From Octopus vulgaris (lineage: Eukaryota): a DNA stretch of 64,000 nt. The stretch covers positions 71,052,001 through 71,116,000 of the forward strand of contig OX597819.1 in the NCBI GenBank assembly GCA_951406725.2, in the 5' to 3' direction. The notes below the pieces were generated by a model. It had not been told where the DNA came from, searched no databases, and saw only the letters and a list, made by a program, of their open reading frames with translations. Of this stretch, positions 2,910 through 64,000 are shown piece by piece. The position numbers and the translations under genes were made by a program. Position 1 is the first letter of the stretch. The number at the start of each line of letters is the position of its first letter.

Positions 2910-3138
2910 CAGTCATGACCGAAGTGGTCTCAGCATATATATATATATACATAAGTAAATAAATGGTATAACAAGGGACCGATATTTACTTGAAAATAGC
3001 AATAGTAATAAATACGACGCTATTGTATAGTTTCACTGCGTAAATACTAGCAAAGACGCGTGTGTGCAACAAACATGAAAAAAATTTGTCTTACCTCTAG
3101 GAAGAACATCTGAAAAATGGAAAACCTAGAATCGGATA

Positions 3139-3209
3139 ATGCAGGACCGGTTTCAGACTCTTCAAATACGTTCGGCAACGTAGATTTGATTTGTCTTCAT
3201 CAGCTGCAT
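3139..3209 (-). ncRNA. Type I hammerhead ribozyme, family A copy 4 (intact)
   Basis: atgcag-CTGATGA-agac...gtct-GAAAC-cg-GTC-ctgcat; 6-bp stem I, extended stem II, palindromic stem III ACCGGT. Confidence 0.85.
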
Positions 3210-3422
3210 ATACCTAGACAATATTTCAAATGTTGTCACATCTTTGCCATTTATTACGATTGCTATTTTCCATTAAATATCGGTGCCTTGTTGTACCATT
3301 TATTTACTTTTATATGTATAATTTTACCCTTACGGGCTATCTTTTACTGGAAAGCAATACTTTCGTATTGCATTATTATTTTCATATATACACACACACA
3401 CACACACACACGCAGACACAAA

Positions 3423-4343: not shown

Positions 4344-4407
<64 letters not shown>

Positions 4408-4618
4408 ATAATAAATCTCTAAACGAGATATAAACAGTAACTGCTCTATAACATAAGGGGCATCAGCCATCTGAATGTGGCCAGGGACAGGGCAGGGCGG
4501 TGGGGTGTTACTGATGCATTTAGCCCCAGGCGATCATCAACGTCACCAGGAGGGCTGACACCATCTCGGTGTCCTCTAGCCTGCAAAGGGAGATCATTCC
4601 CCGAAGACGCGGATGCTA

Positions 4619-4662
4619 CATACGGACCAGGTTTCAAGGTATTTGCCTATTATCAACGCATG
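4619..4662 (-). ncRNA. Minimal type I hammerhead, U3-A8 variant
   Basis: catgcg-TTGATAA-tagg caaata cctt-GAAAC-ctg-GTC-cgtatg. Confidence 0.7.
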
Positions 4663-4947
4663 GTAAGCACCGCTCTCCGACGAATAACTCTCTGTACAGG
4701 CTATATATTTAAGGATTTTCACAGTAAACACATTTACTGATGTAGAAAAACCGTTCGAAAGCAATAATAAATCTCTAAACGAGATATAAACAGTAACTGC
4801 TCTATAACGTAAGGGGCATCAGCCATCTGAATGTGGCTAGGGACAGGGTAGGGCGGTGGGGGTGTTACTGATGCATTTAGCCCCAGGCGATCATCAACGT
4901 CACCAGGAGCCTGTACAGAGAGTTATTCGTCGGAGAGCGGTGCTTAC

Positions 4948-4991
4948 CATGCGTTGATAATAGGCAAATACCTTGAAACCTGGTCCGTATG
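4948..4991 (+). ncRNA. Minimal type I hammerhead, U3-A8 variant
   Basis: Same sequence as 4619-4662 on the opposite strand. Confidence 0.7.
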
Positions 4992-5479
4992 TAGCATCCG
5001 CGTCTTCGGGGAATGATCTCCCTTTGCAGGCTAGAGGACACCGAGATGGTGTCAGCCCTCCTGGTGACGTTGATGATCGCCTGGGGCTAAATGCATCAGT
5101 AACACCCCCACCGCCCTGCCCTGTCCCTGGCCACATTCAGATGGCTGATGCCCCTTATGTTATATATATATGTATGTATATATATATAACAGAAATACGT
5201 TTGAAAAAAAATATAGAAACAACACGTGGAAAAATATGGGGAAAGTAAGAATAAATAAACAGAAAATGCGCATTGAACACCAAAAAGATAAATAAAGACT
5301 TTTTTAAAATGAAAATTAGCGATAAATAAATACAATTAGATGAAATGAGGTAGAATTAAGAGGAATTAAACTCATTATTTTGAATTGTTAAAGAGATTCA
5401 AAGTTAAACCGGTGTCATCATTCATAATACATACATTCATACATGCATGCGTACATACATAGATATAATTGTCTTACTG

Positions 5480-12798: not shown

Positions 12799-12802
12799 TA
12801 TA

Positions 12803-13262
12803 TAATAAATCTCTGAGCGAGGTATATACAGTAGCTGCACGACATCGTGAAGAATATTTGCCACTTAAATGTGGCTAACCCCTAAGGGTGGATGCTACTA
12901 TAGCTTGTAGCCCCAGGAAGACATATCCTCCAGCTGGCTTATAGCTCACTCAGAGATTTATTATTGCTTATTTACACTTTTTCGAGGTCAGTGACTTTTC
13001 GTCACTGGAAAAAGGATATATAGATATTTGCATTGGGAACCACTTCACATCGACAACACGCTGATGACGGGTCAATACCCAGAAACTCGGGACCGTGTGT
13101 ATCACATCAGGTTGGAGATGGGAAGGATGACTTCTCTTTGCAAATACTGATAGGGTACAGAAAGTGTGTTAATAGCCAGTTGGAGGAGATGTCTTCTTGG
13201 GGCTACAAGCTACAGTAGCATCCACCCTTAAGGGTTAGCCACATTTCAGTGGCAAATATACT

Positions 13263-13268
<6 letters not shown>
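12803..13268. mobile_element. Diverged family B element (inverted segment plus one unit)
   Basis: Shares aataataaatctctgagcgag and tagccccagg motifs with 4405 and 45920; 12845-12940 is inverted at 13170-13268. Confidence 0.75.
13056..13098 (+). ncRNA. Minimal hammerhead with canonical C3-G8 core; triplet reads GAC
   Basis: acacg-CTGATGA-cggg tcaata ccca-GAAAC-tcgg-GAC-cgtgt. Confidence 0.6.
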
Positions 13269-18919: not shown

Positions 18920-20933
18920 AATACGATATCCCGATTACTACTTATGTGAAAATTTATTGACTGGAACACTCGCAGAGTCAATGTACGAACATCTGGAAAA
19001 CAATGGAGTTCTGCCACATGAGCAGAAGGGTTGCAAGCGTAAGTGCAGAGATACCAAGGATCAATTCCTGGTAGACTAAACTGTACTTAGAGACTGCAAG
19101 AGGAGGAAATGTAACTTAGCCATGTCATGGATCGACTATCGTAAGGCGTACGATATGATCCCACATTCTTGGATTATGGAGTGTATGAACCTGTTTGGGA
19201 TTGCATCGAATGTTGAGTGATTGCTTGGAAAAAGTATGGCAAATTGGAGGACGGACCTGACAGTATACGGAAGAAGTTTAGGGACAGTAGAAATTAGGAG
19301 GGTGCTTGATACCACTAACACTGATTCTGAGGAAAGCAAAAGCTGGGTATGTATTCAAAAGCCGCCAGCAAAATGTCAACCATTTGTTATTCATGGATGA
19401 CCTCAAACTTTATGGCAAAGAAGAAACCCAAGTCAGTGCTCTCGTTGATACGGTGTATACCTTCAGTGCTGATATCAGGGCGGAGTTCGGACTGAGAAAG
19501 TGTGATATGTTAGTCTTGAAGAGAGGCAAAATCAAATGTATGGGCGGGCTAACGATACCGTCGAGGTATGTTATGAAGCAGATAGAAGAAACGGGCTATA
19601 AGTACTTGGGGATTTTGGAAATGGATAAATTGATGGAGGAAGAAATAACAGAAAAATTTAAGGTGGAGTACTTGCGCAGACTGAGACTGATCCTTAAGTC
19701 GAAATTAAATGGACAGGATAAGATCGAAGCTATCAAAACCTCGGCGATTTCACTCCTTAGATATGGAGCAGAGGTAATCTCATGGACAGTAGACGAACTA
19801 AACAGCTTAGACAGAAAGACAAGGAAGTTGCTAACTAGATATGGGTCACTCCACCCAAAAGGTGACTCAGACAGACTGTATGTACCAAGAAAAAGAGGGT
19901 GAAACGGACTTATTGGATGCGAACACAGCATTAGAGCAGAAGAAAGCAACATAGCATGGTATGTAAAAAATGCCACAGAATCGCTATTATTAGATGTAGG
20001 AAGGTCAAGCTTGTGTAGAATGAAAGATTGCAAAGATAAAGCACTATACAAGAAATTGAAAAAATAGGTGGGTAAAGAAAAGAATGCATGGTCAATTTCA
20101 TAGGGATGTTGAAGATAAGCCAGATAGAGAAAAAAGATGGCTGTGAATTACTAAAAGTGATTTAAAACCGGAAATGGAGGCTCTAATCTGTGCTGCCCAA
20201 GAGCAAGCACTAAGAACAAACTCCATGAAATACAGAATTGACAACACAACAGAAAGTGATAAGTTCAGATTCTGTGGACAAAATGGTGAAACCATATGGC
20301 ATACGCCACTGGCCCAGAAGGAATATAAAAGACGCCACGGCAATATAGCCAGGCTTGTCCATTGGACACTTTGCAACAAGTATGGACTTGACAGAGCAAA
20401 AAATTGGTACGACCACAAACCTGAAGGCATCGTAGAAAATAGAAATGCGAAGATCCTATGGGCTTTTATGAGTCAGTGCGAGCATGAGATAGAGAATAGG
20501 AAGCCGGACATAGTCTTAATTGAGAAAGAAAACAAACTATGCTGGATCATAGATATAGCATGCCCAGCTGACAACATGGTATGCGATAAGGAAGAAAGAA
20601 AAGTCGAGAGATATGACAGGTTAGCTTGGGAGATTAAGCAGTTGTTGTCGATGAAAAAGGTAGCAGTAGTACCAATAATAGTCGGAACCCTAGCAACAGT
20701 GAGCAAAGATCTCGAGAAGTACGTGGAACAAATAGGGGCTGCAATAAGGGTGGAGCACTTGCAGAAAACAGCACTGCTTGGAACCGCTCGAATACTCCGG
20801 AAGGTGCTCGAAAAATAAGAGGTTCACTGGTAGTGAACAGCTGACACTGGTAGTGAACAGCTCACACTGGTACATCTCCAACGTTAGAAGCTGTGCAAAA
20901 GCAATAATAATGATAATAATTATAATAATAATG

Positions 20934-44510: not shown

Positions 44511-46096
44511 ATTTATATATATATGTATACGCATGTATAGTTATACCTCAAATTTTGATAACTATTTTAGAGATCTTGGTTATGATCACTAGTTTTAAGC
44601 TTATAATTATAAGAGTAATTGGGTAAGAATTTATAGTACTATAAAATTTTTTTTATATATTTATTAATCATATAAGATTTTTATATATTTATTAATCATA
44701 TAAGATTTTTAAAGTATATATAATAATTAGTGGTTATAAATTATTTAATTTATTCTGTATTAAGTATTATTTATCATAGTTATTTTATTAATAAATCTTA
44801 CAGTGTAGAGCGATTCTATTCTTTATTTGTGACTTCATTCTATTTACATTTATTGATAAACCATAACTGTTCCCATTCACAATCTTCATTGATAAAGCGT
44901 ATTTGTTCCTCATGCTTAATGAATTCTTCAACAATTTATTCGTTTTTTGCTAATAATGTAATTCCACGAGTATTCTTATAAACGCTGTAAAGAGGTTTTC
45001 CGATTCAAGTATTTAGTTCATTACAAAACCTCGCTAAGCTAAGTATATATTTATATTTAAGATCTTTAGATTTTAATATTTTATAAGTCTTATGGTTTAA
45101 TAATATTGTTTTTTTATGTAAATATCGTTGTTTATGTAATGATCTAATTATCGTAATTTTCTATATAATTATTAGATATTAACTTTAAGTTTATTCGTAA
45201 GAATTTACTTAGCGATAGATATGTTGTTAGCAAGTATACGAGTTGTTTAAGTTAGGTTTATGTATATACATGTATTAATAGCATTAATTGTAGTTTTAAA
45301 TTTCTTATAAATATTATTTTAACTTATATATTGTCTTTTTAAATTGATATTTGCTAGTTTTATTATTCCCATTGATAAATATATTTATAGTATTTATTTG
45401 ATACTATATAACTACGAATTGATTATTTCTTTGAGTATTTTAAATATAAGATTTCTGAAAGTTATTATTTAGCCAACGAGATATAAAGATAATTAATTTT
45501 CTATAGCGTTCGTTTAAGATTGTTTGTTTGTATTTTTGAAATTAGCTATTTCATCTTTAAATATAAAAAATTAATTTATTAGGTCTTTATTATATGTGCA
45601 TATATATTTATTTATAGAGATTATTTTAGATCTTAATTATAATATTTATATACTTTTATATATTTTCATTGATAATTTATATATTATTTAAATTTTATAT
45701 TTTTAATAATATTATAGTTTTTTTTTTGTAAAATATTTATGTAATTAGATATTGACTATTACTGATATTAGATTATTGGTAGGCTTCTTACCTTAAAAAT
45801 TAATACTTAAAAATTAAAATTAATATTTAACATTATAATCGATGTTTTGATACAATCATAATCGTTAAGTTTCTAGTTTGATTATAGAGTTTTTTATCAG
45901 TAAAATTATTATATTATTTCATAACATAAGGGGGATCAGCCATCTAAATGTGGCTAGGGTCAGGGCGGGGTGGTGGGGGTGTTACTGATGCATTTAGCCC
46001 CAGGCGAACATCAACGTCACCAGAAGGGCTGACACCATCTCGGTGTCCTTGCCAGCCTGCAAAGGGAGATCAGCCTCCCCGAAGATACGGATACTA

Positions 46097-46139
46097 CACA
46101 CGGACCGGTTTCGAGGTTATTGCCTCTTGTCAACGTATG
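46097..46139 (-). ncRNA. Minimal type I hammerhead, U3-A8 variant
   Basis: catacg-TTGACAA-gagg caataa cctc-GAAAC-cg-GTC-cgtgtg. Confidence 0.8.
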
Positions 46140-46469
46140 GTAAGCACCGTTCTTCGTTGAGGGACTTCCCCTACAGGCTGGATATATAGGGATTTTCACA
46201 GTAACCACAGTCACTGGCGTAGAAAATCCGTTCGAAAACAATAATAAATCTCTGAGCGAGATATAAACAGTAACTGCTCTATAACATGACCCTAGCCACA
46301 TTCAGATGGCTGATCCCCCTTATGTTATAGAGCAGTTACTGTTTATATCTCGCTCAGAGATTTATTATTGTTTTCGAACGGATTTTCTACGCCAGTGACT
46401 GTGGTTACTGTGAAAATCCCTATATATCCAGCCTGTAGGGGAAGTCCCTCAACGAAGAGCGGTGCTTAC

Positions 46470-46512
46470 CATACGTTGACAAGAGGCAATAATCTCGAAA
46501 CCGGTCCGTGTG
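46470..46512 (+). ncRNA. Minimal type I hammerhead, U3-A8 variant
   Basis: catacg-TTGACAA-gagg caataa tctc-GAAAC-cg-GTC-cgtgtg. Confidence 0.8.
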
Positions 46513-46798
46513 TAGTATCCGTATCTTCGGGGAGGCTGATCTCCCTTTGCAGGCTGGCAAGGACACCGAGATGGTGTCAGCCCTTCTGGTGACGTTGATG
46601 TTCGCCTGGGGCTAAATACATCAGTAACACCCCCACCACCCCGCCCTGACCCTAGCCACATTCAGATGGCTGATCCCCCTTATGTTATAGAGCAGTTACT
46701 GTTTATATCTCGCTCAGAGATTTATTATTGTATTATATTATTTATTTCTTTAAAATATTGTTTAAATATTTCTGATTATTTATTAAAATATTACAATT

Positions 46799-49309: not shown

Positions 49310-49862
49310 ACAACCTTTCAACCCATGGGTCTGTTTTGTGTAGCTGTTGCTGGCGAGGGCTTTACAGAATAGAAGTTCAAACCCTTCGACTCATGTGTCT
49401 ATTTCGTGTAGTTGTTGTTGGCGAGGGCGTCACCAGGTCGGAGTGCAGATCCTTCAACCCACGGGTCTGTTTTATGTAGTTGTTGCTGGCGAGGCTTCAC
49501 CAGGTCGGACTTCAAACCTTCAACTTATGAGTCTGTTTTGTGTAGTTGTTGTTGCCGAGGGCTTCACCAGTTCCGAGTGCAAACCCTTCGACTCATGGGT
49601 CTGTTTTGTGTAGTTGTTGCTGGTGAGGACTTTACGAGGTAGGAGTGAAAACCCGCAACTCACGGGTCTGTTTAATGTAATTATTGCCGGCAAGGGTTTC
49701 ACCAGGTCGGAGTGCAAACCATTCGACTCATGGGTCTGTTTTATGTAGTTGTTTCTGACGAGCGCTTTATGAGGTCGGAGTGCAAACCCTTCAAGCCATG
49801 GGTCTGTTTTAAATAGTTGTTGCTGGTGAGGGCTTTACGAAGTCGGAGTGTAAACCATTACC
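49310..49862. repeat. Minisatellite, about 8 copies of a 67-68 bp unit
   Basis: catgggtctgttttgtgtag-like motif at 49324, 49392, 49460, 49526, 49594, 49661, 49729 and 49797. Confidence 0.9.
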
Positions 49863-51559: not shown

Positions 51560-53230
51560 GTAATATCTTACTGAAATTTCTTATTTGTCTTACGCTTCCT
51601 TACACTTCCCTGTAAGAATGGAAGCATTTCGGGACCACATCAGGTCTATTATTCAATAACTTGTATCTAGAATTGAAAATATTGAAAATTTCCTCTAAGA
51701 GTAAAATACATTGAGAGCTCCCAATTTTTTAAGGTAAATACCCTACCAATTATTTCCCATTTAATATCAGATTTTGTGTTCTTAATTTTTTAAAGACCAG
51801 ATAAGGTCACTCAGGCGTGTACTATAGAGCCTATCTTAATTCTTGAAAGAAAATAAGTGGTTACTAAGTCTGTTCTTAAAGCTAGTAGAACATGACCCAA
51901 TGTAATAATGAAAAATTCCATCTGATGTAACAATACACCTGCAAATTGTGTTTTGGCTCAAACATTGTCCATCAAGTGGACACCTTTTGTTCTGATAGCT
52001 ACAAAGATATTTGATGAGATTAACCCCATGCCTGCTACTAGCAGGAGAATTAGGCATCTCGTCTATAATGTTACTTATTACCCCACAACTATGTTAATAG
52101 GTTGGTTCTACACTAGACTCTGTGTATTACTCAATTCTATTTTCACTACAGTTAATTTTAATGAATTTGGTATGGTACCAGATTATCTCCCTTGCTCTAT
52201 CTATCGCAGGCTCATTATCGCTTTCGCTCGCATTATTAACCTGTCAGGCGTTTATAATCCGCTACATGTGAATCGTTGCTATTATCACCTGTCGTACAAT
52301 TACTCATAATATTAGATTTTTATTATCTGCTTTTACTATGTTCTTATCTTCGAATTCTCTTGTCCTTGTAATACTGTGTGCCGCAACGATTTGAGCAAGG
52401 TTATTGCAAGTGGAATATGCAAACTCATTTGTGTGATAATAAAAAAATTGGCTATACTTAAATGGTGAAAAGTGCTTATCCAATGCGACGAAAACTTTAT
52501 ATTTCTTACTAGCTACTTTGTGAAGCCTGCATTATGCCATAGCAAAAGTCGCGATTTATTTTTTCTTTCGTGTGGGTAATTATTATTTTTGGTAGCTGTC
52601 TTATTTTTCTGTGAATTATGTTTTGCTAAGAGGTTTACCAGGACATTTGCCACTGTGTTTGCTTATACTTGCATCTTTACTTCTTATGCCACTATTCTTA
52701 TAATATTAATTCTTGGAATGGTGAGATGAAGTCACAATAACCTTGTCATGATTCTTCATTTCACATTTAATATATTATTATAGGTGGTGAACTGACAGAA
52801 ACGTTAGCGGTATTTCGTCTGTCTTTACGTTCTGAATTCAAATTCCGCCGAGGTCGACTTTGCTTTCATCCTTTCGGGGTCGATAAATTAAGTACCAGTT
52901 GCGTACTGAGGTCGATCTAATCGACTGACACCCCTCCCCCCAAATTTCAGGCCTTGTGCCTGAGTAGAAAAGAATGTTTATATTATCAATAACTATTTGA
53001 TTCGAAGCATAGAGTGTACTGACATGCGCCTTTATCCCATTTTTAGTGATATATATTAACTTACCTTTGTGCCCAGAGTCGGCAAGGGCATTTTTGTAGC
53101 ATGTTTCCTTATGTCTAAAAATCTCTTCTTTTGCTAACACTCTAAAAATAAACTTTGCTAAATAAAGACGTGAAATCGAACTAGTGTGTGTGTTTATTAT
53201 TGGCAGACTGACCCTTCCAAGATAAAACAA
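51560..53230 (-). mobile_element. Decayed Penelope-like element (RT thumb, linker, GIY-YIG endonuclease) interrupted by a SINE at 52782-52975
   Basis: EEIF...YKNALADSGHKGKLIY; ALDKHF; AYSTCNNLAQIVAAH; CPLDGQCL...YYIGSCSTSFKNRLSNH; TRLSDLIWSLK...IKWEII. Confidence 0.85.
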
Positions 53231-54285
53231 TATTTGTTCCATCACACGAGTTCACTTCAAGAATTACACATAAAAAATTAAACAAAAAAAAAAAAAGAAA
53301 TTGATTCCATTTGTAGAAAATAAAATAAATATGGGATGGGTTCTATTACAAATATCTTCAGAAATACCTGACTGCCACGAAAGAATTTGTGTGGTGTTGA
53401 TGGACCATCACTGATCGACGATAAGGATTCAGATGATTGATAATCTAAATTATCTGACACTGATTTTGAATTACAAATATTTTTTGTTGCTTCTTTTCCA
53501 CCAATGGACCACGCCTGTGTTACTTCGCCATCATCATTCCATAAAATGTGTTGACTGGGACGAAAATATTGATAAAAACATCAATACATGTGAGAGTGTA
53601 TACGAGGACGGTGGTCGTCGGATGTGCTAGAAACAACAGCCAAATTTTCTTTGAATCGTACACCTTTTTGTCTGAAATATTTACATTTTTTTTTCTTTTT
53701 ACCGAAACATCCCCACCTACGGTTTTTAAGTGCCACAAAATTGGCCAAAATCGGTCCGACGTAGGATGGTGAGGAGTGAAAAGAAAGATCAAAAATTTTC
53801 AGAACATTTTTTCATAAAAAGATGACCCCCGCCCACATCATTTTGAGGCTGCGGTGGAAAAAAATTGGAAAAGCTCCATGAAAACGGAAAAATTCCTACT
53901 TATGTAGTCTTCTTCATTCGAATCCCCGTTTTTCTGACAATCCTCTCTCCAAACCCTAAGAAAAAACTTTCCCCACAAATTTCTTTATAATCATAATCTA
54001 TGCAGTTTGAAAGGTATTTGTAAAATGTTTCATTAAAAATACCCATTTTCTTGAAAGTTATGAGGGAAAAACGTCGGGTCGTGTGAATTTTCCGAAACTC
54101 GCCTCGTCACCCACTCGGAAAAGTTCTCTGCCACAAAACTCTATATACTCTGAATCTACAGCACCTTCGCGCGCGATTTGTTGAAAATTTCGTTCAAAGA
54201 ATCCATTTTTCTGGAATTTATGAGGCAACAAAATCTGTGGGGCACATATCTGTAGTTATGCCTCTCTCACCTCACTTTCTCTAAC

Positions 54286-63513: not shown

Positions 63514-63866
63514 TGTCTTAGTTATTAATCAATTTCACCAATTCCTTTTACATACTGAATACTTGGTCCTTTTACCATGGTCCTTTTACATACTGAATAC
63601 TTGGTGAAATTGATTAATAACTAATTAATTTTACCCTAAATTGTTGAAATTATAATTCATTTCTCTCTGTTTATTGCCTCGGTTTTCACCGCTAAAATAT
63701 GGTGTTTGCTAGTTTGGCCCACGTGGGTGGAAGGGGAGAGCAGGAATTCTTCGCTTGCATATTTTGAATTTGTTGGCACTGTCAGTTTGAACGGGTCGTC
63801 TGAGGTGTTAAGTCGCCAAAAGGGTATGTTCCTACTTTCAGTGTTTCCAAATCCAAATTAAGAAAT

Positions 63867-63929
63867 TTTGGGCTGACGAAAGAAATGTCGAATTTTATTT
63901 GGCTGATCTAGAAACGTAACGTTCTCAAA
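63867..63929 (+). ncRNA. Type I hammerhead ribozyme family J in an element starting about 63520 and running off the window
   Basis: tttggg-CTGACGA-aaga...tcta-GAAAC-g taa c-GTT-ctcaaa; short inverted 5' segment at 63520-63625. Confidence 0.7.
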
Positions 63930-64000
63930 TAATCTTTGTTCTTGTGATTTTTTAATGCTTTTTACCCCCATACCTTCGTGGGTTATTTTGAGTAAACACT

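Follow-up and report, generated by a model that had tools for sequence, protein, structure and literature searches.

A U3-A8 type I hammerhead in a dispersed ORF-less repeat of Octopus vulgaris with Penelope-like insertion anatomy

The 64-kb stretch of Octopus vulgaris DNA analysed here (64,000 nucleotides, hereafter the window) carries, near 46 kb, a repeat with hammerhead motifs in which core positions 3 and 8 read U and A instead of C and G. The locus raises the question whether the two positions changed as a pair while catalysis was maintained, as an initial annotation of this DNA had proposed, and what kind of mobile element has dispersed the motif.

Hammerhead cores in the window

A motif scan of the whole window, with positions 3, 7 and 8 left free, recovered eight hammerhead motifs at six loci, each of the eight with a Watson-Crick pair between positions 3 and 8. 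Seven retain an intact U16.1/H17 site, where 0.1 per window is expected from 20 block shuffles. Three loci are U3-A8 (1129, 4656/4954 and 46133/46476), three are C3-G8 (3203, 13061 and 63873) and none of the six is mismatched. The cores that the initial annotation had reported by their motif edges are indeed present, namely TTGACAA at +46476 and -46133, TTGATAA at +4954 and -4656, and CTGATGA at +13061, and the reading of a type I hammerhead whose U3-A8 pair is compensatory is supported. An Rfam search of the window gave no hammerhead match at the gathering score, and no type I hammerhead model appeared among the 150 E-value matches listed of 288, which were mostly microsatellite. A CUGANGA descriptor does miss the U3-A8 motif, and Cervera and de la Pena (2014, PMC4209133) say likewise of their own descriptor.

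Other parts of the proposal need revision. The four U3-A8 copies first counted are really two insertions, set against one C3-G8 insertion, because 46133/46476 and 4656/4954 are the arms of single insertions; mirrored arms were rejected as independent copies, with only 4 differences in 367 nt at 46 kb and 99.6% identity over 257 nt at 4 kb. By simple counting, perfect agreement of positions 3 and 8 among six loci, three of each state, has a chance of 1 in 20, or 1 in 10 when counted as five lineages, and the window alone is therefore weak evidence of covariation. Nor do the copies make up one family, since the 13-kb element is 66% identical to the 46-kb unit as against 87% between the two U3-A8 insertions. 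Stems I to III do not stay paired throughout either: the 10.1-11.1 pair reads U.U in the 4954 motif, whose stem III also carries an extra base, and C.A in the 13061 motif, which has A for U16.1; the pair closing stem II is thus mismatched at two of the three loci (46476 is paired).

The core Y3 U4 G5 A6 N7 R8 A9, G12 A13 A14, A15.1-U16.1 and H17, with a Watson-Crick 3-8 pair, is complete at 46476, 46133, 4954 and 4656. The 13061 copy, which had been taken as the canonical comparator, departs from it by the A at 16.1 (cut site GAC), lacks 13 nt of stem I, and was rejected as an intact comparator. At this position (13092) about 99% of the family depth in public contigs reads T (94,846 of 95,730 in run X1), that is GUC and a complete core, and the A therefore reflects decay of that copy. 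The C.A mismatch closing stem II (13068, 13081) is family-wide in the C3-G8 relative, with no variant at 13068 and A>T at 4-8% at 13081; a non-standard 10.1-11.1 pair has accordingly been kept in a very abundant family.

The remaining loci are observations in their own right. The motif at 1129, overlooked in the initial annotation, is a U3-A8 type I hammerhead (1105-1180, +) with core TTGAAAA, stem III ACGCGT and a long stem I; its element has no BLAST match elsewhere in the window and is weakly similar to the main family (z about 4). On the minus strand, a cluster of C3-G8 hammerhead repeats (376-546, 1588-1747, 2001-2121 and 3090-3260) has a long stem II and stem III ACCGGT; its copy at 3203 is intact, with a weak Rfam HH9 match (E 0.006), and the other copies show damage to the core or stem III, or deletions. 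A candidate at 63863-63930 (+), present as a single copy in the window, combines a hammerhead-like CTGACGA with a nearly palindromic stem III and the cut site UU.

Anatomy of the insertions

Coordinates of the 46-kb insertion and of its two relatives are collected in Table 1. In the sense motif, stem I has 6 bp (46470-75 with 46507-12) and, with its distal helix, forms the open arm of the three-stem junction; stem II has 4 bp (46483-96, G10.1-C11.1) and is followed by GAA (46497-99). Stem III exists only as the palindrome ACCGGT (46500-05), with a duplex of -8.3 kcal/mol and no monomer hairpin, and the predicted cut falls after C17 (46506). In all three elements and at 1129, stem I is interrupted and loop 2 is of the CAA(A/U) type; a loop 1-loop 2 tertiary contact may form there, and the loops may resemble those of Schistosoma. 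Folded as a circle, the unit (GC 50%) reaches -117.7 kcal/mol (z -4.5 against 60 shuffles).

Table 1. Features of the 46-kb insertion and related insertions in the window
Feature	Positions	Strand	Remarks
Target-site duplication, left copy	45907..45919	+	12-13 bp
Inverted arm, 367 nt (1.02 units)	45921..46287	-	98.9% reverse complement of 46322-46688
Type I hammerhead of inverted arm, U3-A8	46097..46139	-	U3 at 46133
Sense arm, 1.24 units of 360-bp ORF-less unit	46287..46731	+	
Extended, interrupted stem I around hammerhead	46453..46529	+	distal helix 46453-46462 with 46519-46529; MFE and constrained folds
Type I hammerhead of sense arm	46470..46512	+	U3 46476, A8 46481
Tail, about 43 nt, at one arm end only	46689..46731	+	alignment of arm ends
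Target-site duplication, right copy	46731..46743	+	
Second insertion, U3-A8 family	4406..5164		87% identical to 46 kb; period 356
C3-G8 family insertion	12802..13268		66% identical; inverted-arm and tail layout as in U3-A8 insertions

The two arms at 46 kb point away from each other. The segment 46287-46371 is repeated exactly at 46647-46731 (period 360), and the inverted arm has the short 3' end, which stops about 43 nt ahead of the tail end. The flanking duplication is exact over 12 nt at both ends, or 13 with an ambiguous T, and a duplication of at least 13 nt appeared in none of 20,000 random flank pairs. The sense arm and unit hold no ORF of at least 120 aa, and hence no RT plus GIY-YIG ORF of the kind that marks an autonomous Penelope-like element (PLE). 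At 4 kb, a minus arm with the tail (4406-4909) is joined to a plus arm with the short end (4908-5164), and the insertion is set in (TA)n on both sides; the 13-kb element, homologous to the 46-kb element along the unit (z 12.8 against shuffles), has (TA)n on one side.

All three insertions combine an inverted 5'-truncated arm with a one-sided tail of about 43 nt, as Penelope-like insertions do, and the junction from tail to unit upstream of the hammerhead is identical in all of them. This shared junction indicates that the unit is closed on itself, and since the sequence upstream of the hammerhead re-enters the tail in each case, the template appears to have been a closed ORF-less unit, either a circle or an uncleaved multimer. 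The window contains only partial tandems (1.02-1.4 units), with neither a tandem array bearing two same-strand hammerheads nor an autonomous partner sharing the tail. A read-through transcript of the 46-kb copy would form a predicted 367-bp hairpin that pairs the motif with its mirror arm; with one hammerhead per strand, and the motif locked away by the mirror arm, the insertion is a predicted dead end.

Other repeats lie in the same window. A region at about 51600-53250 (-), presumably a Neptune-type PLE judging from its RT end, cysteine linker, GIY-YIG-like and CCHH-like motifs, is decayed and interrupted by another repeat, and Pfam gave no significant hit within it. There is also a broken non-LTR retrotransposon ORF at 19291-20818 (+), with a weak RVT_1 match (E 3.2e-05) below the cut-off, and a 68-bp unit repeated in tandem about 8 times at 49312-49859.

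Positions 3 and 8 across the families

The stretch was found in contigs of 20 of the 24 public runs listed (four organism codes, 10 studies). Contigs from four runs were aligned to the unit for the U3-A8 family, at identities of at least 80%, and from four runs for the C3-G8 relative, with about 1,500 contigs each in runs X1 and X3 on the 46-kb unit; strongly differing contigs were left out of the alignment, which favours apparent conservation. The repeat is very abundant, of the order of 10^3 copies, a rough figure taken as a ratio to the lowest-depth contigs (35-60 in X1), summed depth not being the same as copy number.

U3-A8 is the majority state of the 46-kb family in X1 and X3. C3 takes 10.4% of the depth in X1 and 10.5% in X3, and G8 takes 14.8% and 0.9%, shares that do not match those of C3, for reasons that alignment clipping may or may not explain. 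The phase of the two positions was deduced by matching depth and distance to contig end to the listed records. On this basis C3 and G8 stand together in record 4 of X1 (depth 2180, 13 differences in about 105 nt) and record 12 of X19, and U3 and A8 in records 9 and 11 of X19 and record 27 of X8. Record 28 of X8 pairs C3 with A8 at depth 3.9 and a further X8 contig seems to pair U3 with G8 at depth 2.4, both below the error caution of 5; an X19 contig of depth 4.2 has G8, with position 3 unread. These contig sequences suggest a C3-G8 sister subfamily beside a mostly U3-A8 family. The C3-G8 relative at 13 kb shows no variant at C3 or G8 at the 1% level in any of its four runs, for which the variant listing was complete. 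The swap proposed for positions 3 and 8 is real, and the 3-8 pair is Watson-Crick at all six loci of the window, with two low-depth contigs looking mismatched; the passage from C3-G8 to U3-A8 is probably one compensatory event and not statistical covariation.

The proposal that catalysis is under selection finds modest support, and for the source lineages only. In the C3-G8 relative, with the copy-specific change at 13092 set aside, variants fall at 13 of 32 non-core positions and at none of the 12 core positions (Fisher p 0.009; 0.03 without CpG sites). In the U3-A8 family, no variant falls at the 10 other core positions among the variant rows listed (there are 6 further rows), compared with 8 of 33 other positions, a difference that is not significant (p 0.17), and dispersed copies decay. 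The stem I and II variants listed (46473 A>G, 46493 T>C, 46510 G>A) all keep pairing. Selection would act on source copies and not on the copies in the window.

Depth is uneven along the unit: in X1, 46336-46371 and 46588-46635 have about ten times the depth of the hammerhead region, and the tail with its preceding segment is therefore common to more abundant relatives or truncated copies. Contig joints that go back along the unit were rejected as evidence of circular RNA, as they correspond to the chosen unit boundary and are present in DNA runs too; in assembled contigs, a ligated RNA junction would look no different from the DNA. Runs X8 and X19 are only guessed to be RNA, and the unit in their contigs was not counted as expression. 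Among the loose ends listed (there are 161 further rows), copy ends did not accumulate at the predicted cut, and pattern scans of metagenome contigs returned no loci.

Identity and spread of the element

With good confidence, we read 45921-46731 as one insertion of an abundant ORF-less 360-bp repeat with a U3-A8 type I hammerhead, likely a non-autonomous retrozyme copied by Penelope-like enzymes. It is a short non-coding unit (360 and 356 bp, no ORF, in a range of about 170-400 nt) with one type I hammerhead. Non-LTR retrozymes, as described in published accounts (Cervera and de la Pena 2020, PMC7229834; Li, Clavereau and Pollet 2026, 10.64898/2026.07.22.740005), share with it an ORF-less unit of ~360 bp, a canonical type I hammerhead whose stem III is short and palindromic, a predicted circle that pairs strongly with itself, thousands-fold abundance and dispersed near-monomers, and both periods match mussel retrozymes (350-390 bp). 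The present family differs from them in its U3-A8 core and in GC (50% versus under 45% quoted), and is known here from near-monomer copies with the PLE inverted arm and tail; the main text of PMC7229834 does not use the word 'inverted', nor that of the 2026 preprint 'tail'. The PLE signature itself, as summarised by Craig et al. (2021, PMC8557442) and Frangieh et al. (2024, PMC11167929), consists of a partial tandem, an inverted 5'-truncated copy, a one-sided tail and AT-rich or microsatellite targets, and its layout and target bias are common to all three window insertions. In contrast to endonuclease-bearing PLE insertions, however, these have no ORF and a tail of about 43 nt versus the 30-40 quoted. 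In the purified PLE system the tail is stated to equal the interval between two RT start sites (PMC11167929).

The same insertion anatomy would also be expected if the unit were a 5'-truncated pseudo-LTR stub of an autonomous PLE and not a self-contained retrozyme. Most PLE hammerheads are described as single truncated motifs (PMC4209133), and the Neptune-like remnant lies in the window, without Pfam support. Yet that remnant has no similarity to the 360-bp unit, and upstream of the hammerhead, at the same junction in all three insertions, stands another copy of the tail and not the end of an ORF. Motif architecture is also canonical and not minimal. According to PMC4209133, a canonical metazoan type I motif has helix I of 6 bp, helix II of 4 bp, helix III of 1-2 bp and a palindromic loop of 2-4 nt, which is what the 46-kb motif shows (at 46476 helix I has 6 bp and helix II 4 bp, the extra base is absent and the distal stem I is long), whereas the minimal motifs of the Schistosoma mansoni Cercyon PLEs, with helix II of 7-8 bp, helix I of 4-5 bp and an unpaired base between A9 and 10.1, are of a form that 46476 does not take. 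A truncated stub is thus an unlikely source of the unit. That the motif is a chance match can be regarded as refuted, despite the empty Rfam gathering search, by the excess of intact motifs over shuffled expectation (7 versus 0.1) and by the recurrence of the motif at the homologous position of three diverged elements, whose stems compensate.

A further possibility is that the hammerhead is dispensable: drift would have fixed U3-A8 in a master copy, and mobility would depend only on a tail bound by the Penelope protein. In its favour, the two changes are transitions that probably belong to one event in the lineage, conservation of the core does not reach significance in the U3-A8 family, and the shared tail region has about ten times the depth of the hammerhead region in X1; hammerhead mutants, moreover, did not impair PLE insertion in vitro as reported in PMC11167929. 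Nevertheless, drift is an unlikely source of a double change that re-forms the core's one Watson-Crick pair while the 10 other core positions show no listed variant; stem variants keep pairing, and the barely alignable 1129 element is also U3-A8 with its core intact. We consider drift very unlikely, and retain the retrozyme copied by Penelope-like enzymes as our reading.

We found no description in the literature of U3-A8 on a canonical retrozyme scaffold, although work by Lunse et al. in 2017, which reportedly concerns short-stem-III PLE hammerheads, or by Przybilski and Hammann in 2007, said to treat 3-8 exchanges, or supplements, may cover it; among the matches listed, judged by title and abstract start, no octopus hammerhead paper dealt with the 360-bp family. 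The swap as such is no surprise. Covariation to U3-A8 in several natural hammerheads, stated to be active in vitro, was published by Perreault et al. (2011, PMC3088659), along with natural U10.1-U11.1 mismatches such as that of the 4954 copy; its passages on such variants describe no U3-A8 retroelement family with a C3-G8 sister subfamily. The same core covariation as in the 46-kb family occurs in about 1,300 Cercyon motifs, mostly single, some in opposite-strand pairs 100-700 bp apart (PMC4209133).

A scheme compatible with the anatomy would begin with transcription of tandem source loci, whose transcripts may self-cleave after C17, perhaps most efficiently as dimers joined through the palindromic stem III. 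A dimer model is given in PMC4209133, and eight of nine Xenopus retrozyme dimers are reported not to have cleaved (10.64898/2026.07.22.740005). The monomer would then be circularised or stay multimeric, and a Penelope-type RT/endonuclease could start copying it at two fixed internal positions that lie about 43 nt apart, yielding arms longer than a unit that point away from each other. U3-A8 might have arisen in the source lineage by two transitions, most simply through a U.G wobble, and have been kept, as we propose, because the Watson-Crick pair is preserved; a separate change from C3-G8 to U3-A8 may have taken place in the 1129 element. More tentatively, a retrozyme lineage with a full, tertiary-stabilised scaffold could have exchanged its catalytic pair C3-G8 for U3-A8 and then multiplied to about a thousand copies alongside a close C3-G8 sister.

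The U3-A8 swap is real but already published, and the 46-kb family is an addition to known U3-A8 hammerheads, which annotators can accommodate by allowing U3-A8 in hammerhead descriptors. Mobilisation of animal retrozymes by PLEs has been argued in the papers cited above from co-occurrence and pLTR homology, and the anatomy seen here, in which an ORF-less unit has a PLE tail and an inverted arm and is flanked by a target-site duplication, agrees with that proposal. The U3-A8 and C3-G8 sister subfamilies offer a ready pair for cleavage assays. If the proposed switch is true, they would amount to a natural side-by-side in vivo experiment on core tolerance, and the two-start insertions would be direct sequence evidence of a Penelope enzyme copying a ribozyme-made RNA circle from two fixed points.
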